Source of the DNA: a virus
Lineage: Duplodnaviria; Caudoviricetes
Direction: 5' to 3' (one strand)
IMG/VR virus record: IMGVR_UViG_3300009345_000002
Location: 1 to 51,868 of that record
DNA: 51,868 nt
Part shown: in pieces, positions 4,624 through 50,904 of the stretch
Layout of the letters: each line of letters opens with the position of its first letter
Position numbering within the stretch: the first letter of the stretch is position 1
Translations under genes and position numbers: made by a program
The notes under the pieces: generated by a model
Seen by the model: only the letters and a program-made list of their open reading frames with translations
Told to the model about the DNA's origin: nothing
Databases searched by the model: none

Positions 4624-4661
4624 TAATAACAAATAAACAAATAAACAAAGAAAGTAAAAAT

Positions 4662-4793
4662 ATGTATAAGAACTCAATCATAGTTTTAATAATGTATGCA
4701 ATACTAACGGCTTTTAATTATTGGATTATTACAGATAAATTTGAAGCTATTAGTGCTCAATTAACAGATATAAATGTAAGATGTTGGAGATAA
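4662..4793 (+). CDS. small membrane protein (43 aa, not in ORF track)
   Basis: MYKNSIIVLIMYAILTAFNYWIITD...; first ATG after promoter/leader. Confidence 0.5.
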   Translation: MYKNSIIVLIMYAILTAFNYWIITDKFEAISAQLTDINVRCWR

Positions 4794-6060: not shown

Positions 6061-6363
6061 ATGGATATGAGAAAACTAAGGCTTATGGCTAGGGTATCTC
6101 AAAAGGAGGCAGCTGAGATTATTAATGTATCTCAAGCTGCTCTATCCGATAAAGAGGTAAATCCAAAAAGAAAATTTACACCAGAGCAAGAAAAGATTTT
6201 ATATAGTCATTATTTTGATAAAATTAATAGTCTTTTTGATATTTTCCAACTTGCTGCTATTCAGCGTATTGACGATATAGATAAAAGGCTTAATCAAGAG
6301 CAAAAAAGAGAGTTAGCTGTAAGATTATTTAATTTAACAGAGGAGTTTATCAAAAATGTATAA
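6061..6363 (+). CDS. XRE/Cro-like HTH transcription regulator
   Basis: LRLMARVSQKEAAEIINVSQAALSDKE helix-turn-helix pattern. Confidence 0.75.
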   Translation: MDMRKLRLMARVSQKEAAEIINVSQAALSDKEVNPKRKFTPEQEKILYSHYFDKINSLFDIFQLAAIQRIDDIDKRLNQEQKRELAVRLFNLTEEFIKNV

Positions 6364-6579: not shown

Positions 6580-6606
6580 AAACAAAACTAAACAAAGGAA
6601 AATAAA

Positions 6607-7161
6607 ATGAAAATGGATAAAATAGCAAATAGTGGTAATGATGAATATTATACACCACTTTATGCAATAAAACCTATAGTTAAATATTTAAAAAAAGGGA
6701 GTACAGTTTGGTGTCCTTTTGATACAGATGATAGTCTTTATGTTAAATACTTAAAAGAAAATGGATTTAAAGTTTTAAATTCTCATATTGAAGATGGTAT
6801 TGACTTTTTTAATTATATAAAAGATTTTTCACCTATATGTGATTATATTATATCAAACCCACCATATAGTATTAAAACAGAAGTTCTTCAAGCTCTGTTT
6901 GATAATAATAAGCCATTTGCTATGTTAGTCGGTGTAGTTGGTATATTTGAAAGCCAAAAGAGATTTGATATGTTTAAATTAAATAAATTTGAAATAATGT
7001 ATTTTAATAGGAGAGTTGGGTATATGAATGATTACACTTCTGGAAAATGTGCATTAAGTCCTCCATTTTCTAGTGTATATGTATGCAATAATATATTACC
7101 AAGCCAGATAGTATTTGAATCAATAAATAAAAAAGAAATATTAATTAATAATGGAGAATAA
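6607..7161 (+). CDS. phage DNA N6-adenine methyltransferase
   Basis: DEYYTP, VWCPFD and catalytic IISNPPY motifs. Confidence 0.75.
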   Translation: MKMDKIANSGNDEYYTPLYAIKPIVKYLKKGSTVWCPFDTDDSLYVKYLKENGFKVLNSHIEDGIDFFNYIKDFSPICDYIISNPPYSIKTEVLQALFDNNKPFAMLVGVVGIFESQKRFDMFKLNKFEIMYFNRRVGYMNDYTSGKCALSPPFSSVYVCNNILPSQIVFESINKKEILINNGE

Positions 7162-15249: not shown

Positions 15250-15278
15250 TTGAGTTAGTATTATTATTATAGTATAAT
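15250..15278 (+). promoter_or_regulatory. promoter for candidate sRNA-A
   Basis: TTGAGT(15250)-17-TATAAT(15273). Confidence 0.6.
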
Positions 15279-15284
15279 AATAAA

Positions 15285-15387
15285 TGTTGCAAGAGGTATT
15301 TCTTTCACTTTCTTAATATCTCTTGTGATTATTCCTTATAATTAAGTTATAGTAAAAAAGGCAGAATTAATTTTTTGTCTTTTTTTT
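15285..15387 (+). ncRNA. candidate small RNA A (~100 nt)
   Basis: Own promoter, long hairpin with pyrimidine loop, TTATTCCTTAT segment, intrinsic terminator, no RBS-led ORF. Confidence 0.45.
15354..15387 (+). terminator. intrinsic terminator
   Basis: AAAAAAGGCAGAA-TTAAT-TTTTTGTCTTTTTTTT. Confidence 0.65.
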
Positions 15388-15446
15388 ATTGTTTTTACTT
15401 GACACCTGTTAGATTAAGTGTTATATTATACACATACTAAACAAAA
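15381..15446 (+). promoter_or_regulatory. duplicated 66-bp promoter cassette, copy 1
   Basis: TTGACA(15399)-17-TATATT(15422); 5 mismatches to 22214-22279. Confidence 0.85.
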
Positions 15447-15474
15447 ACATTAAACAAAATAAAGGAAAATAAGA

Positions 15475-16905
15475 ATGTCTAAAGATATTATTGTTCTTGA
15501 TCAAAATAGAAATCTTGCCGACTTATATCAAACAGATAACGGTATTGAAGATATTTTATCACAATTGGAAAATCAAGCTAGATCTATGGTTTTTGACTTA
15601 ACAACAGATACAGGTAAAAAAGAATGTATTTCTTATGCCTATAACATTGCTAAATCAAAAACGGCATTAGTTAAGGCTGGTAAATCACAAACAGAAGATG
15701 CTAGAGCATTTATTAAAACTGTAAATTCTCAAACAAAAGAAGTTGAAGAAAGACTTGATGCATTAAGAGATGAAGTAAGAAGACCAATTACTGAACTTGA
15801 AAACAAAGAGAAAGAAAGAAAAGCTATTTTAGATAAAGCTCTTTCTGATATGTCTGACTTTGTTCCAGCTATTGGTATCCAGCTTACATTAGAAGAAATT
15901 GAGCAGCGTTTAAATGGATTAAATAAAATTCATGAGCAAACAGATTGGCAAGAGTATAAAATGAAAGCACAAGCTGATTTTGAGAGACATACTGCTGCAT
16001 TAAACTCTCTTAAAACTGCTGCTAATGCCATTGCAGAGCTTAAAGCAAAAAAAGAGGCAGAAGAAAAAGCTGAAAGAGAACGCCAAGAGAAAGAGCGCAT
16101 TGCTGCTGCTGAAAAGGCTGCTAAAGAAAAAGCTGAAAGAGAGGCTGCTGAGAAAATTGCTAAGGCAGAGGCTGAAAAGAAAAAAGCAGAAGAAGAGGCT
16201 AAGGCTGCACAGTTAAAAATTGAAGAAAATGCTAAAAAAGAACAGCAAAGACTAGAAAAAATTAAAGAAGATAAAAGCAAAGCTGATAATATGATTGCAG
16301 AACTTGACCTTATTGATTTTAGTAAAGCTGATACATTGGAAGAGGCAGAAAAGAATTTTGTTCTAGCAACGGAGTATAGAAGTAAGGCTATGGATCTTGA
16401 TACTAGTGTTTATAAAGAGGCATGTGTTGTGTTTAAAGATTATCATGAGCAATCAAGAAAAGTTTTAGATACTCTAACTCAAAAAAGAAAAGAAGAGTTA
16501 CAGATATCTTATAAAAAAATCGCAGATGAAACAATTGAAAATATCAATAAATTAATGAATTTTGATTATGATTCTGTAACAGTTTCTGAGCTTAAAACAA
16601 TATCTATTAAAATTGAAAATAGTGTTAAAGAGTTCTTTAATGACCATGGTAAGCCAGAATATAGCATTGGTATTACAGGTCTACAAATGAAACTTGATGA
16701 TTGTAAGAAACAACTTGAAAAACTTATCTCTTCTAAAAAAGATGAGGCTGCTAAACAAGCTAATGAAGATCATTTGACTGCTAAAAAAAGAGAAACAGCT
16801 CAATCTTTAAGAAATATTGATAAAACTATAACTGCTGACCAATTAAAAACAATTGTAGAGGCTCTATTTAATAATGAAGTTAAAAATGTAAGGATTGTAT
16901 TATAA
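15475..16905 (+). CDS. long coiled-coil phage protein (TolA-like misannotated family)
   Basis: ARSMVFDLTTDTGKKECISYAYNIAKSKTAL...RLDALRDEVRRP N-terminus; EKA-rich helix. Confidence 0.7.
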   Translation: MSKDIIVLDQNRNLADLYQTDNGIEDILSQLENQARSMVFDLTTDTGKKECISYAYNIAKSKTALVKAGKSQTEDARAFIKTVNSQTKEVEERLDALRDEVRRPITELENKEKERKAILDKALSDMSDFVPAIGIQLTLEEIEQRLNGLNKIHEQTDWQEYKMKAQADFERHTAALNSLKTAANAIAELKAKKEAEEKAERERQEKERIAAAEKAAKEKAEREAAEKIAKAEAEKKKAEEEAKAAQLKIEENAKKEQQRLEKIKEDKSKADNMIAELDLIDFSKADTLEEAEKNFVLATEYRSKAMDLDTSVYKEACVVFKDYHEQSRKVLDTLTQKRKEELQISYKKIADETIENINKLMNFDYDSVTVSELKTISIKIENSVKEFFNDHGKPEYSIGITGLQMKLDDCKKQLEKLISSKKDEAAKQANEDHLTAKKRETAQSLRNIDKTITADQLKTIVEALFNNEVKNVRIVL

Positions 16906-19176: not shown

Positions 19177-19602
19177 ATGATTAAAAAAAAATGTACAAGA
19201 TGTGGTGAAACTAAAGATATTAGCCAATTTCAAAAGAGAGCAGCATCATCAGATGGATTAACTGCATCTTGTAAAAAATGCTTATCAGATTATGATAAAA
19301 AAAGAGCAAATAAACCACATAGAGTTAAAGCTAGAGAGAATTATTTAAAAACTGAGCAAGGCAAAGCAGCTCATAAAAGAGCAGTTGATAAATATAGAAA
19401 AAAAAATAATATTCAATATAGCTCTAACAATATTTTAAATAATGCTATTCGTGATGGTAAAATAAAAAAACCAACTAAATGTAGTATATGTGGTGTAGAA
19501 AATGTTTTAATTCATGGTCATCATGAAGATTATTCTAAGCCTTTAGAAGTTATTTGGTGTTGTGAGCAATGTCATGAAAAACTTCACGGTAGATTAAAAT
19601 AA
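19177..19602 (+). CDS. zinc-finger / HNH-like endonuclease
   Basis: KCTRCGETK...CKKC and CSICG..HGHHEDYSKPLEVIWCCEQCH. Confidence 0.8.
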   Translation: MIKKKCTRCGETKDISQFQKRAASSDGLTASCKKCLSDYDKKRANKPHRVKARENYLKTEQGKAAHKRAVDKYRKKNNIQYSSNNILNNAIRDGKIKKPTKCSICGVENVLIHGHHEDYSKPLEVIWCCEQCHEKLHGRLK

Positions 19603-19840
19603 TTTCCCTCTTGCAAAACCTGTAAAGGATAAGCACAGTTTTTAAGTATTTCTGTAAAAAATACTTAATTATTATGGAGGCCGCAGGTAGAATTTAATAC
19701 AATCTCACCGTAAGGCGAATGCTCAGTTCAAGTCTGAGGGTAACCGAGAAACCCATCGAGTGGGGCAATTGACTAGGATGTAAAACAGAGAAGAAATTGC
19801 AGCAGTTTTAGATATTTCTGCTAAATAAAAAAATATCTAC
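19601..19840 (+). ncRNA. structured intergenic RNA containing a tRNA-like domain (19676-19746) flanked by two pseudoknots
   Basis: T-arm CTCAG-TTCAAGT-CTGAG, partial acceptor stem GGAGGCC/GGTAACC, GNRA hairpins, PK2 19635-19668, PK3 19801-19839. Confidence 0.5.
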
Positions 19841-19878
19841 CTATAAATTAACTAAACAAAATAAAGGAAAAAAATAAT

Positions 19879-20391
19879 ATGACTGTAATAGCAGCAAGAA
19901 AAACTGATAAAGGTGTAGAAATTTCATGGGATAGTTTTTGTGGAGACACTTATAGAAAAGGAAAAGTAGATAGGCTTTCAAACCTAGATAAGAAAATTGA
20001 CGGTAATAACTTTAAGGCTCTTATTTGTGGTAGTGCAAGCTCTGGGAGTCTTTTAAAGTTTTTCTCAAAACACAATGGTATTGAAAGTGCAACCGAAATG
20101 GATATTCTTGGCTATTTAATTAGATTTAAAGAATGGTGCAGAGAAAAACTTCCAGCTCCAGATTTAAACATGGATATGATTATTATTATGGATGGTAAAA
20201 TATTTGAAGTAGATGCTGACCAGTTAGTTGTTTTTGAGAATACAGAATTTATTTCAATGGGTGCAGGTCAGCAATATGCAGCAACAGCATTGCATCTTGG
20301 TCATACAGCAGAAGATGCATGTAAAATTGCTTGCCAATTGTCTAATCATTGCTTAGAGCCTGTTAGAACTGAGGTAATAAAATATGACTAA
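19879..20391 (+). CDS. HslV/proteasome-like Ntn hydrolase
   Basis: N-terminal M-T-V-I-A (Thr1), ISWDS, SMGAGQQYA..AL, A...ACQLS pattern. Confidence 0.7.
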   Translation: MTVIAARKTDKGVEISWDSFCGDTYRKGKVDRLSNLDKKIDGNNFKALICGSASSGSLLKFFSKHNGIESATEMDILGYLIRFKEWCREKLPAPDLNMDMIIIMDGKIFEVDADQLVVFENTEFISMGAGQQYAATALHLGHTAEDACKIACQLSNHCLEPVRTEVIKYD

Positions 20392-20967: not shown

Positions 20968-21731
20968 CTAAAAAAACACAAACACCTATGACAGCAACAG
21001 CTTGTTTTGAGCTTATTAAAAAAAGTAAAAATGTTGCAGACCATAAATTTTTAAACGAGTTAGAAAAAACAACTAAGCCAATGCTTGATAAAGCTTTTGC
21101 AATTGGTCAAGAGTATAAAATAAGACAATTGTTATTTACATTGAAAGTTATTGCAAAAGAAAAAATATTAGTTGATTTAGGTTTTGATACATATGTTTAT
21201 AGAGATGATGTTGAGCAATTTGTTGATATGTATGCAGAAACAAATGATTCTAAACATATTGCAATCATTGAACTTGAAAAGTATGAAAGAGAAATACCTA
21301 ATCATATTGCCGAAGATGTGCTTAAATTAAAAGAATTAGACATTTTTGATAGATTTCTTATTGTTTATACAGATTACACTCAAAAGACAAAGAAACGAGT
21401 TGAAAAAGAGCGTGATCCTATTATATTTGGAATATTTGAAAGAGGTAAAGGTCATAATGTAGAAATTTACGATAAGATGTATTTTATTGGAGATTGGGAA
21501 GATGATTATTGCGACCTTACTCTTGAAAAAATGGTTGATGTAATGGCTAAGAAAAAGAATAAAGATATTAAACATAGCACTTTTGCTAGTACTGATATTA
21601 AATCTATTGAAAAATACATGGAAAAACTATCTGAAAGTAATGATAAGACTAATTTTAGAATAATTCCAAATAAAAAACCTACTGTATTTAAAAAAGTAAC
21701 AAGAGTGCTTAAATCATGGATAGGTCAATAG
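20964..21731 (+). CDS. conserved-looking hypothetical protein (DPIIFG...FIGDWEDDYCDLTL)
   Basis: 255-aa ORF with motif-like C-terminal half. Confidence 0.75.
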   Translation: MTKKTQTPMTATACFELIKKSKNVADHKFLNELEKTTKPMLDKAFAIGQEYKIRQLLFTLKVIAKEKILVDLGFDTYVYRDDVEQFVDMYAETNDSKHIAIIELEKYEREIPNHIAEDVLKLKELDIFDRFLIVYTDYTQKTKKRVEKERDPIIFGIFERGKGHNVEIYDKMYFIGDWEDDYCDLTLEKMVDVMAKKKNKDIKHSTFASTDIKSIEKYMEKLSESNDKTNFRIIPNKKPTVFKKVTRVLKSWIGQ

Positions 21732-22093
21732 ATTTAACACAAAACTTTCTCTTTTCAAAGAATCCTTTATCTGATATTTCAAATATGAGTTTTGGAATTA
21801 AGAGTAAATTATTTCAAAAATCTTTTTCTCTGGTGGAATTTATACATGGAAGTAATCCAGCAGATGAAAGACAAAGAGCTTGGAGTAATACAACTTTATT
21901 ACTTGGAGTAAATTCAAATAAAAATGAAGATTATCTAAAATATTGTGAAATTGAATCTGGTAATAGTTGTTTCTGCTGTGGGAAAAAAGAAAATATTTTT
22001 AAAAATGTTAGATTAGGATTTATTGGTATTTGTGGAGAATGTGATCGCAGAATGGAGAATATGGAATCAACAAAAAAATGGTTGCAATCCTAG
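21716..22093 (+). CDS. zinc-finger hypothetical protein
   Basis: CFCC...CGEC. Confidence 0.65.
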   Translation: MDRSIDLTQNFLFSKNPLSDISNMSFGIKSKLFQKSFSLVEFIHGSNPADERQRAWSNTTLLLGVNSNKNEDYLKYCEIESGNSCFCCGKKENIFKNVRLGFIGICGECDRRMENMESTKKWLQS

Positions 22094-22110
22094 TATTTTT
22101 GTGGTATATT
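22082..22110 (+). promoter_or_regulatory. promoter for candidate sRNA-B
   Basis: TTGCAA(22082)-17-TATATT(22105), TG extended -10. Confidence 0.65.
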
Positions 22111-22115
22111 TATAA

Positions 22116-22212
22116 ATGAGGTTATCAACACCTCGTTCAAAATTAAAAAAATATATTTTTTTTTATTTTGTTTATTTGTTTAGGGAAAAGTAGGTTTTTA
22201 GCCTGCTTTTTC
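22116..22212 (+). ncRNA. candidate small RNA B (~95 nt), antisense to CA-rich mRNA leaders
   Basis: 5' hairpin GAGGT/ACCTC, GU-rich core TTTTATTTTGTTTATTTGTTTAGG, terminator hairpin, no RBS-led ORF. Confidence 0.55.
22185..22212 (+). terminator. intrinsic terminator
   Basis: AAAAGTAGGT-TTTTA-GCCTGCTTTT followed by T-rich tail. Confidence 0.65.
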
Positions 22213-22213
22213 A

Positions 22214-22279
22214 TTTTTTTATTGTTTTTACTTGACACCTGTCAGATAAGGTGCTATATTATACATATACTAAACAAAA
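22214..22279 (+). promoter_or_regulatory. duplicated 66-bp promoter cassette, copy 2
   Basis: TTGACA(22232)-17-TATATT(22255); CACCT-N8-AGGTG inverted repeat in spacer. Confidence 0.85.
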
Positions 22280-22294
22280 CAAGGAACAAAATAA

Positions 22295-22663
22295 ATGAAA
22301 AGAATGCAAAAATATTTAACAATCATTGTAGATAAAAATGAAAGCTTTGAGGAGTGGGCTGAAAAGTTTAAAATTGATTCTGATTCCGAACTATATCAAG
22401 ACTTAGATAAGTGCTATATGGAAAGCGAGAATGAGATTCAATATGCTCCAGTATTTAACTTTGATGATGATGAATTTGCAAGACATGGTATGGATGTTGT
22501 AGACGAATATGAAGAAGATACAAATTCTTATATTACAACAAGATCAGGATGTAAAGATGGTATTGCAGAATCTATTTATAATGAATATGTTGGAGAAACA
22601 AAACTAGACCCAATTACATCTGCTTATATTTACGAGTTAATAAAAGATGAGGTATATTTCTAA
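22295..22663 (+). CDS. acidic hypothetical protein
   Basis: First ORF after promoter; D/E-rich. Confidence 0.7.
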   Translation: MKRMQKYLTIIVDKNESFEEWAEKFKIDSDSELYQDLDKCYMESENEIQYAPVFNFDDDEFARHGMDVVDEYEEDTNSYITTRSGCKDGIAESIYNEYVGETKLDPITSAYIYELIKDEVYF

Positions 22664-25894: not shown

Positions 25895-25928
25895 TTAATA
25901 ATGTATCACTAATTGACTAATCTGTCAA

Positions 25929-26253: not shown

Positions 26254-26616
26254 TTAATAACCGAATATTGTTTGATGCTCTCTGTCATCAATATGCACAA
26301 TATCTTTTCTTATTCCAACTGTAAGGCCCAATGCTATAGCAGTTGTTATAAATTTAATTCTTTGTTCTTGATTCCAATGAGACCAAGGAAAATCTACAGC
26401 TCTACCTAGCTTATGCATAGAATCCTCACTACCACCTATTTTTTTATTGAACTCTTCTGATCTCCAAGAAGAACTAGGAGATAATCCAAACCCAACAATA
26501 TGTCTTAAGAATCCTATTTTAGATAAGAACCCTTTATCCATATGCTCAAAAACATTAACCCTACCATAATCCATAGTGAACTCAGTAGGTTTGAAATATT
26601 TATCAAAATAATCCAT
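26254..26616 (-). CDS. peptidase M15A-family endolysin
   Basis: SSWRS..FN..IGG..DSMH.LGRAVD...VHIDDR zinc-peptidase motifs. Confidence 0.85.
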   Translation of the reverse strand: MDYFDKYFKPTEFTMDYGRVNVFEHMDKGFLSKIGFLRHIVGFGLSPSSSWRSEEFNKKIGGSEDSMHKLGRAVDFPWSHWNQEQRIKFITTAIALGLTVGIRKDIVHIDDREHQTIFGY

Positions 26617-26676
26617 ATATTTTTTTCCTTTCTTTGTTTGTAATATTATATATTATAACAGAAAAAAGCTAGTTTA

Positions 26677-27210
26677 TCAACCAGCCTTATTCATCATCTT
26701 TTCTAGTAGTAATAACTTACTCGTTATTCGCTCTTGTCTCGTCCTCAGTTGGTTGGATTCCTCCCTCAGAAGACCCATTTCCTTCTTTATCGAAAAAACC
26801 TCAGCATTTGTATTTGTTAGATCAGTTCTAAGACTTTCTCTTGTTCTAACAACCTCTTGGCTTAGGTTTTTGTTTTGTTCAGACATTATTTTAACCGTTG
26901 TTGATACTGTAGCTAATTGCTCCCTAACTTTAAAGTTCTGGTCTGACATCTTTTTATTCATATCAGATAACTCATCTTTTACTTCTAGCATTATATTTGC
27001 TAGTTCTATTTTAGTTTTTAACGGCTCTAACTCAGAGTTTGCTCTGTTATCGCTTGTAATTTTTTCTTGAGTTTTACTATTATTTGCTTGGTCTTTTATC
27101 TGCTCGTCATAAGATCTAAACTTATCAACAAGCAACCAACAAAATCCTAAAAATAAAGCCCCAACTATAAAGCCCTGTATACTATTTTTACTGTTTAAAT
27201 CAATTTGCAT
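26677..27210 (-). CDS. N-terminal TM + coiled-coil protein (lysis accessory, spanin/holin-like)
   Basis: One TM helix then long coiled coil; immediately upstream of endolysin. Confidence 0.55.
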   Translation of the reverse strand: MQIDLNSKNSIQGFIVGALFLGFCWLLVDKFRSYDEQIKDQANNSKTQEKITSDNRANSELEPLKTKIELANIMLEVKDELSDMNKKMSDQNFKVREQLATVSTTVKIMSEQNKNLSQEVVRTRESLRTDLTNTNAEVFSIKKEMGLLREESNQLRTRQERITSKLLLLEKMMNKAG

Positions 27211-27311
27211 AATAAACCTTTCTAATTAAGAGTAGGAAAGGGGCGAACCCCAAACCTAAACCTTAATATAACCATATTTACATAATACAACTAATTAGTA
27301 TAAATAGTCAA
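27211..27311 (-). promoter_or_regulatory. lysis-operon promoter and structured leader
   Basis: TTGACT(27311-27306)-18-TATTAT(27287-27282); leader starts ATGGTTATATTAAGG and has GGGG-TTCG-CCCC hairpin. Confidence 0.6.
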
Positions 27312-43449: not shown

Positions 43450-44865
43450 TTAGTAGCCTTTAGTTAAGATCATAATATCTTTTGATCTGAATTTTAAGTC
43501 TGGCTGAGCAGTAAACATTAAACTTCTGTTTTGGAATGTTACGTTATCAGCTGTGTTAAATCCAAATGGTGATACTTTAGTATAGTGGAACATTGAACCC
43601 TCTTTAGCATAAACTAAGATAGTATCAGCTGTTGCCTCACCTGTTTTGCTTTCAATGAACTCACCTTTAGAGAAACCTGAACCTAAAACTGTTACGTTTA
43701 CGTCTTGGTCTGTCATGTCAGATAGTTTTGCCTCAATAACTTCTTTGAAGTACTCTTTAACAGTCTTCATTACTGGGTAATCAGCAGAAGTAGTTAATAG
43801 TTCATTTAATTGAGCCATGTAAGAACGAGGTAGAACTACTGTATCGAATGGACGGATAATCGCATCAACACCTAAGTTGTTCTCTTGTGAATCTGTTCTC
43901 CATTTGTCAACGATTGCTTGAGCGAAAGCCTCAACATCAGCATTTGTATCCATTTTCTTAGTCCAAATACCAGCATCAGCAACTGCACCAGGGAATTTTA
44001 ATAGACCTTTGATAGTAGAACCATCTCTCTCAGAAGTTACACCAACATGTAAAATTTGTTGTAGAGCAACGTCAAATGATGTATTTGTAGCCATAATTAA
44101 CTCATCAACTAATGATAAACCGATTGCTTGGTTTAGAATTTCATTGATTCTATTCCAACGGATTGTAGCAGATAGTTGAATAACTGGTACAGATACTTGG
44201 TTGATTTCGATTGAAGTTGTGTTTTCAAAGTCGATGTTACCAACAGCGCCAGCCATTTGCTCAGCTGTTAGATACTGACCTTGTATACCAAGTCTTAGTA
44301 ATTCTTTTTTGAATCCACATTGGCCAACTACAACATTAATGTATTTTTCAATACCTTGCTCATAGATTTTAGCTCTTGTGATTTCAGCAAGACGTAGTGA
44401 TAAAGTTGTGAAAATACGGTTAAGACCGAAATCACCATTATCAGCAGCCTCGTAAGAGTTTAAAACTCTAACTGAGTTTTTAAGACCATCTGCAATACCA
44501 TCAGCATCAATTGAGTTAGTTACTGTTTCGTAACCATCTTTATTGATTGAATTGATCATTCTTGCGAAGTTATTAACATCTAATGAATCTTCGCCAGCAG
44601 AAATAAATTCGCCAACTGCATTTTTAATTGAAACATCTGCTTGGTTTCTAATTACTGATAGTAATTTTGAACCTTTAAGCTCTGGAGCATTTATGAAAGT
44701 CTCATAACCCTCTTGAGTTTCTAGCATTTCGATGTTTTCTGAAACAAAGTTTTTAACACGTTCTGGAGCGCCGTGTAAAGCACCATCAACAATTGGCTGT
44801 AGCTTAGCGTGTGCAGCTAAAGCAACTGTGTTGAACTTTTTATAATCATCTCTAGTAAATTTCAT
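43450..44865 (-). CDS. major capsid protein (HK97 fold, DUF2184-like, long N-terminal extension)
   Basis: Size/position; high-expression codons; INVVVGQCGF, G....IKGLL..PG, PFDTVVLP. Confidence 0.75.
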   Translation of the reverse strand: MKFTRDDYKKFNTVALAAHAKLQPIVDGALHGAPERVKNFVSENIEMLETQEGYETFINAPELKGSKLLSVIRNQADVSIKNAVGEFISAGEDSLDVNNFARMINSINKDGYETVTNSIDADGIADGLKNSVRVLNSYEAADNGDFGLNRIFTTLSLRLAEITRAKIYEQGIEKYINVVVGQCGFKKELLRLGIQGQYLTAEQMAGAVGNIDFENTTSIEINQVSVPVIQLSATIRWNRINEILNQAIGLSLVDELIMATNTSFDVALQQILHVGVTSERDGSTIKGLLKFPGAVADAGIWTKKMDTNADVEAFAQAIVDKWRTDSQENNLGVDAIIRPFDTVVLPRSYMAQLNELLTTSADYPVMKTVKEYFKEVIEAKLSDMTDQDVNVTVLGSGFSKGEFIESKTGEATADTILVYAKEGSMFHYTKVSPFGFNTADNVTFQNRSLMFTAQPDLKFRSKDIMILTKGY

Positions 44866-50413: not shown

Positions 50414-50448
50414 TATTAAACAATAAACAAATAAAGGAATTAATAAAA

Positions 50449-50904
50449 ATGATTAGACAATACGAAAATAAAAACACACTAGAAAAAAGCCAAAATAAAG
50501 CAATAAATAATGTATTGTATAAAAATGCATTAGTTCTAATAGTAAATAATGGAATTGATGGCAATTATACAAAAACTTTAGGTTATTACACTAAAGCCCC
50601 AACTTATACTAATTATATTGAAGAATTAAAAAGAGTTTTAGATTGTAAAGAGTTAGAGTTTAAAAAATTAAATGATATACAATATAAAAATTTTAGTATT
50701 GTTTTTACTGATAATAGTATAATTGTTAACGGTAAAGAATGGCCTTTAAATGAAAACCGCAAAGGTTTTACTTATAAAGTATTAAAAAATAAAATAAATG
50801 TTGATACAATTGAAGAATTTAAAAAACATATAGTGCAATCTTGCAATGTTGCAAGCCCATTTTATACAACATTAAAAAACTTACTTGAAAAACTGGAGGC
50901 GTAA
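50449..50904 (+). CDS. hypothetical early protein
   Basis: AAGGA RBS after promoter. Confidence 0.7.
   Translation: MIRQYENKNTLEKSQNKAINNVLYKNALVLIVNNGIDGNYTKTLGYYTKAPTYTNYIEELKRVLDCKELEFKKLNDIQYKNFSIVFTDNSIIVNGKEWPLNENRKGFTYKVLKNKINVDTIEEFKKHIVQSCNVASPFYTTLKNLLEKLEA

Follow-up and report, generated by a model that had tools for sequence, protein, structure and literature searches.

The small RNA GcvB is approximately 200 nt long. In enteric bacteria its unstructured, GU-rich R1 seed is described as pairing with CA-rich or ACA-containing translational enhancers in or near the ribosome-binding sites of many mRNAs (PMC3879156). The RNAs by which phages act on their own genes are, as they are reviewed, cis-antisense or directed at a single target, such as sar, OOP, aQ and c4 (PMC12197685). 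The c4 antisense RNA of phages P1 and P7 acts in trans on a phage ribosome-binding region (PMC12197685; PMC8198154) and is described there as sitting in the operon that it controls and as having one target mRNA, ant. Phage sRNAs with multiple targets are described mainly by way of their host targets (PMC12197685), and these include VpdS and PreS, which bind Hfq (PMC12197685; bioRxiv 10.1101/2024.10.31.621285). VpdS is said to regulate both host and phage mRNAs (PMC12197685), and these sources present the two RNAs through their host targets or competition for Hfq, not as the mirror of a leader that phage mRNAs share. In phage T4, RegA and RegB are described as shutting down many early mRNAs post-transcriptionally at their translation initiation regions (PMC3014915). 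A literature search that covered few subscription journals found no published description of a phage RNA that mirrors a leader common to many of the phage's own operons.

The locus described here, termed unit B, lies in virus record IMGVR_UViG_3300009345_000002, the whole of which (51,868 nt, GC 31%) is the window that was analyzed. The + strand carries a block of small early genes together with replication and recombination genes, and the − strand a block of myovirus head, tail and lysis genes. PHROG and Pfam profile searches of the genome's proteins gave no integrase match, and neither an antirepressor nor an integrase is among the 80 (PHROG) and 72 (Pfam) proteins. The host is probably Gram-negative and probably gammaproteobacterial, judged from the SSB hits and the M15 endolysin and spanin. 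The annotated phage set contains no close cultured relative, relatives at 90–95% and approximately 50–55% protein identity are represented solely by proteins of Logan contigs, and scans of viral contigs, metagenome contigs, genomes and annotated phages found no related DNA. Two viral loci (L006 and L007) have one gene in common with the phage, and their intergenic stretches contain no unit resembling unit B. The major capsid protein gene (43450–44865, −) has 2 hits among 1.84 billion representatives, and a capsid protein so nearly without relatives indicates that the phage lineage is isolated.

Unit B (22116–22220, + strand) is on balance likely to be a phage small RNA that would repress, in trans and by antisense pairing, the promoter-proximal leaders of the phage itself. 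Its exposed middle mirrors the A/C-rich leaders of most promoter-proximal genes, and hence the unit is likely to be a small RNA that would lower the expression of those genes. As a sequence feature it is real and statistically strong; as an sRNA it is a good candidate from a single genome, as yet unconfirmed. What the sequence itself shows is a complementarity that is concentrated in leaders, together with the hairpin and terminator; the toehold and the open state of the leaders come from folding predictions, and we infer transcription, repression, timing and the use of Hfq. The unit extends over approximately 105 nt including its U tail, and its parts and the promoter before it are as follows.

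22082 to 22110, + strand: predicted sigma70-type promoter (−35 TTGCAA, 17-nt spacer, TG-extended −10 TATATT)
22116 to 22136, + strand: 5′ hairpin from the predicted +1 (predicted fold)
22116 to 22193, + strand: overlapping open frame of 25 codons, with an AUG at the predicted +1
22138 to 22170, + strand: weak A/U stem holding a U9 run and AUUUUG (predicted fold)
22171 to 22183, + strand: unpaired 13-nt U/G toehold, the seed (unpaired probability 0.89–1.0 in the predicted fold)
22184 to 22220, + strand: intrinsic terminator with a 13-bp stem and U tract (predicted fold)

This is the general layout of a trans-encoded base-pairing sRNA (own promoter or 3′ UTR origin, intrinsic terminator, 50–300 nt), in which the terminator is clear and the promoter weak. 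The latter matches the consensus at 9 of 12 positions and has the TG, in a promoter scan that overall did not rise above chance (62 sites versus 57.6 ± 6.2 expected). Its −35 falls within the last codons of ORF 21716–22093, and its −10 hexamer is identical in the promoters at 15399, 19118 and 22232. Because the seed lies between the stop of ORF 21716–22093 and the next terminator-like site, it would be transcribed from the + strand under either origin. The T tract of the terminator doubles as the upstream element of promoter 22232. The predicted + strand fold (−27.4 kcal/mol, z −5.6, with G·U at 4 of 33 pairs) compares with −16.4 kcal/mol for the − strand, and its U-rich stretch, hairpin and U tail would be compatible with an Hfq-binding module. 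Rfam gave no match at the gathering score in the whole window and none at 22116–22220 at E ≤ 5, nor did ARAGORN return a match. The initial annotation had placed an sRNA of approximately 95 nt at 22116–22212 and taken 22161–22184 as its seed; the predicted anatomy is indeed that of an sRNA, now extended to include the U tail, and within the proposed seed 22171–22183 is predicted to be unpaired (p ≥ 0.89) while 22161–22170 sits in the weak stem.

The same annotation had listed eight leader segments complementary to this 24-nt core. All eight are exact reverse complements of parts of 22161–22184, each at the position assigned to it, and each lies upstream of a start codon and within approximately 25 nt of it. 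The complements are concentrated in leaders, as expected from the initial proposal, with matches of at least 12 nt in 5 of 53 + strand leaders and in none of 30 late-strand leaders or 849 CDS windows. Since matches of at least 9 nt occur in 17 of the 849 CDS windows, the three shortest of the listed segments (two of 9 nt and one of 10 nt) are weak when taken alone.

Seven promoter-proximal leaders were used for scoring, six identified by a promoter pattern that is independent of the seed and one (4662) added by eye. The summed exact-match score of the core against these seven is 84, which was reached by none of 6,000 shuffles (3,000 mono- and 3,000 dinucleotide; maximum 67), and the summed hybridization of −129 kcal/mol was reached by none of 2,000. 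Among the genome's 103,690 24-nt windows (both strands), the core is the top complement once the leaders' own opposite strands are set aside, and the next scores at most 68. In unrelated AT-rich viral DNA, where 23 sites selected for the motif (see below) had been masked beforehand, none of 645,882 windows scored 84 or more (maximum 77), and 1.8 Mb generated from Markov models of the intergenic DNA of the phage itself contained no window reaching 84. The low complexity of the sequence, raised as a caveat when the match was first noticed, does not account for it, because no null set reached 84.

When G·U pairs are allowed, the pairing region lengthens 5′ to about 22152 and the U9 run is predicted to face the purine Shine-Dalgarno block of the leaders, with U opposite GG as wobble pairs. 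Contiguous pairs including G·U then number 21 at 15475, 19 at 19879 and 15 at 263. Changing G at 22170 and 22178 in silico weakened the predicted binding at all 8 of the motif leaders tested. The predicted targets are as follows.

15451 to 15471, + strand: leader of 15475–16905; 21 contiguous pairs that take in the AAAGGAAAA Shine-Dalgarno by means of G·U; dG −19.4
4634 to 4665, + strand: leader of the small ORF at 4662; 30 of 32 positions paired, ungapped, across the AUG; dG −18.2
931 to 958, + strand: leader of 966–1325; dG −15.8
2757 to 2779, + strand: in-frame AUG at 2766 within ORF 2706–2990, absent from the initial annotation; dG −15.3
6587 to 6620, + strand: leader of the DNA methyltransferase-like gene 6607; dG −14.9
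22269 to 22307, + strand: leader of the adjoining gene 22295; dG −13.8
19853 to 19871, + strand: leader of the HslV-family gene 19879; 19 contiguous pairs; dG −12.5
26614 to 26640, − strand: leader of the M15 endolysin gene (26616), with a sigma70-like promoter of its own at 26680; dG −12.1
558 to 573, + strand: leader of 575–889; 16 exact pairs; dG −12.0
50424 to 50435, + strand: leader of 50449–50904; 12 exact pairs; dG −11.5

When accessibility is taken into account, the ten best-ranked of the 82 starts are 15475, 4662, 966, 6607, 22295, 19879, 26616, 575, 3351 and 50449. Six of the seven promoter-proximal leaders are in this group (five of six without 4662, whose selection by eye means that the set is not fully independent), as is the endolysin leader, and the predicted targets 966, 2766, 3351 and 19879 are internal starts. 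A dG of −11.4 or lower, a threshold chosen post hoc, is reached by 6 of the 7 promoter-proximal leaders versus 5 of 75 other starts, and a threshold-free Mann-Whitney comparison gives p = 7e-4. None of 60 RNAs with a shuffled middle bound equally well. CDS windows have a mean dG of −4.0, and 2 of 168 reach −11.5 or below. A ranking by raw hybridization energy alone places roughly half of its top 21 non-self sites inside genes, the tape measure and major capsid genes among them. The promoter-proximal leader at 19177 has no match to the seed. The original proposal, that one phage sRNA silences the first gene of most early and middle operons, is hence partly supported at the level of predicted pairing, by the six top-ranked promoter-proximal leaders, and the predicted target set is not purely early and middle, in that the endolysin is included and 19177 is absent.

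The leaders that carry the motif are 65–73% A, contain two to three ACA each and are unstructured (predicted folds of 0 to −2.1 kcal/mol). An exact A/C-rich 18-mer is found in 23 unrelated viral loci (L012–L034; 12 distinct contexts), and it precedes an ORF on its A-rich strand in 17 of the 23 loci and 8 of the 12 distinct contexts. In unrelated viral contigs the 18-mer often stands directly before start codons, frequently without a Shine-Dalgarno. From its distribution, the 18-mer is suggested to be a widespread viral translation enhancer. These 23 sites, which were selected for the motif, score 79–83 on the summed-match statistic, and none of the 23 has a strong terminator on the U-rich strand. 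Unit B shows the reverse arrangement, and this inverted, terminator-linked placement of the motif appears to be unusual. A 22-mer copy has two exact hits in bacterial genomes, one of which precedes an ATG. Capture of unit B from a host sRNA was considered and rejected, the flanks of both bacterial hits being without the context of the unit.

A leader motif that is generic in unrelated viruses means that the phage's leaders can be explained without any sRNA, and also that foreign mRNAs could be targets. The RNA might then be real while its selected targets are foreign A/C-rich leaders, in host mRNAs or co-infecting phages, and the phage's own leaders would share a generic enhancer. This is in keeping with the 18-mer leading ORFs in unrelated viruses, with the bacterial 22-mer before an ATG, and with the use of U instead of C opposite the Shine-Dalgarno, which widens pairing; the phage's own leaders, however, are matched over 16–30 nt in register with Shine-Dalgarno and AUG, so they would be hit hardest, and we regard this explanation as unlikely. 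A leader copy inverted within a 3′ UTR could have left the seed behind as a neutral remnant, the terminator and the downstream promoter element being the sole parts that matter, but we regard this as rather unlikely. Such a remnant would explain the 26/30 ungapped identity between the seed and leader 4634–4663, and it would fit the weak promoter and the low-complexity sequence. The seed may well have originated by inversion of a leader, but that origin is compatible with function. Moreover, there is no − strand promoter or ORF beside the seed, which forms the free toehold of a fold with a z of −5.6 and is a composite of two leader variants joined in tandem, with a mean match to the leaders that exceeds the match of any leader to the rest.

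Other explanations concern the effect of pairing or the nature of the product. The A-rich leaders, single-stranded by prediction, could be stabilized or activated by the RNA, for example through masking of A/U-rich nuclease sites, and PreS is described as acting both ways on different targets (bioRxiv 10.1101/2024.10.31.621285). Since the Shine-Dalgarno, and in some cases the AUG, would lie within the predicted duplexes, and the leaders lack inhibitory structure that could be opened, such activation in place of repression is very improbable. It is just as hard to favor a leaderless mRNA for a basic/hydrophobic peptide of 25 residues, in which the U-rich tract would encode F, Y, V and L and a dual function would be possible: the frame is open to 22193 from an AUG at the predicted +1, and unit A (see below) likewise begins with an AUG, yet the AUG is mostly paired in the predicted fold, 15% of shuffled sequences yield a comparable ORF, the hydrophobic run spans just some 10 residues, there is no Pfam match at E ≤ 1, and none of the genome's coding windows comes close to matching the leaders this well. 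The − strand carries leader-sense sequence and might be the actual product, an A/C-rich decoy titrating either a GcvB-like sRNA of the host or a protein that binds leaders, much as AgvB is described as mimicking GcvB targets (PMC12197685). This is the least credible of the readings, for no − strand promoter is nearby, the predicted fold of the − strand is 11 kcal/mol less stable and has none of the G·U pairs, and the U tract is on the + strand.

The reading of unit B as a trans-acting repressor of the phage's own leaders places it close to, and apart from, each of the systems described above. The initial analogy with GcvB holds, in that an unstructured, GU-rich seed is complementary, by computation, to CA/ACA-rich elements at several ribosome-binding sites, which parallels the pairing reported for R1 (PMC3879156). 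Unlike GcvB, unit B is phage-encoded, is about half as long and has no Rfam match, and its predicted pairing is longer, near-perfect and reaches the AUG. GcvB is a chromosomal gene whose targets are mRNAs of amino-acid uptake and metabolism, whereas unit B is in a virus and its predicted targets, scored among phage starts, are phage genes. As far as its sequence indicates, unit B is not GcvB itself, though it would act in the manner of the R1 seed. The P4 CI and N15 CA RNAs are grouped with c4 as phage antisense RNAs. Like c4, unit B is predicted to block translation in trans at a phage ribosome-binding region. In contrast to the location of c4 in its target operon and the single target described for it, unit B is standalone and has about ten predicted targets across operons. 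It differs from c4, CI and CA in having one linear seed and no match to the Rfam models of that family, and its targets are scattered over a genome without an antirepressor or integrase by profile search. With VpdS and PreS it shares the character of a phage-encoded, multi-target trans sRNA, the described emphasis of those two being on the host. As with RegA and RegB in the account of T4, many early mRNAs are the predicted targets, at their initiation regions. RegA and RegB are proteins, a repressor and an endonuclease with no such match in this phage, and the predicted agent here is an RNA.

In the proposed mechanism, host sigma70 polymerase would make the RNA from the 22082 promoter, or the RNA would be the 3′ end of the 19118 operon, and it would be + strand both ways. 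The toehold would dock onto the AAACAAA repeats of the leaders, and upon strand displacement the weak A/U stem (22138–22170) would open so that its U9-AUAU part covers the Shine-Dalgarno and the AUG. This would keep 30S subunits from loading on the endolysin and, in most sigma70-driven operons, on the first cistron, and silencing would reach coupled downstream genes through polarity and decay. A stable RNA would build up and become a delayed brake on sigma70-driven genes, premature endolysin included. It could serve as such a brake in lytic growth or, alternatively, as a threshold against leaky expression.

A palindrome, TAGTTATA..TATAACTA, lies over the −10 box of four early promoters (532, 4600, 6560 and 50395, +), and a second is in the spacer of the duplicated promoters at 15399–15427 and 22232–22260 (+). 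We infer that both may be operators, for which the HTH genes at 6061 and 17435 may encode the binding proteins. Viral loci L008–L011, considered as possible relatives of the phage, match only the putative operator palindrome and are unrelated. The sRNA promoter carries neither palindrome, so the RNA could add a level of control shared by the two promoter classes.

Two further units have a similar build.

15250 to 15388, + strand: unit A, promoter, hairpin and terminator, with a 12–15 bp stem and C/U-rich loop; fold −27.5 versus −10.5 for the opposite strand
25928 to 25821, − strand: unit C (near 25895–25821), with a strong promoter, 5′ hairpin and bidirectional terminator

Units A and B are colinear, with one gap, from the −35 of their promoters to the duplicated downstream promoter and differ in the middle, and they are probably paralogous. 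Unit A is an internal control, as it has no strong leader match (best dG −9.1), and its target is possibly in the host. Neither A nor C binds any of the 82 start regions better than −10.2 kcal/mol. For unit C, a 15-bp helix with the leader of the spanin-like gene 27210 (27230–27300, −) is separately predicted (dG −11.4). Mutual sponging among A, B and C was considered and discarded, their binding to one another being merely −1.5 to −3.9 kcal/mol.

Other elements were noted elsewhere in the window. The motif TGRTTRWATTAAG occurs five times in both orientations, at 27274 (−), 28275 (+), 28353 (+), 28438 (−) and 29194 (+), around genes between the tail fibre and lysis, and its copies could be mutually pairing leader or RNA elements, operators, or inversion sites. 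A GC-richer intergenic stretch after the HNH-like gene (19603–19850, +) contains small hairpins, one with a loop like the T-loop of tRNA; the fold of the whole region is no better than shuffles, and Rfam and ARAGORN gave no match there. Iterated A-tract repeats, in opposite orientation and ending in a TA run, occupy the contig ends (1–200 and 51540–51868) and may be an origin or packaging region that spans the assembly break.

If the repressor reading is true, a single RNA that recognizes one leader code in many operons of its own phage would time the early-to-late switch, which is often unexplained in phages without known regulators. A more far-reaching form of it, offered tentatively and as doubtful, is that unit B is a master RNA off-switch, a mirror of the consensus leader (enhancer, Shine-Dalgarno spacer and AUG) that ends the translation of nearly all sigma70-driven operons and restrains the endolysin, within a cassette set of A, B and C. 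Because the leader motif is generic, such an RNA could also silence co-infecting phages, and, if this reading is true, RNA would do in this phage what T4 does with RegA and RegB.
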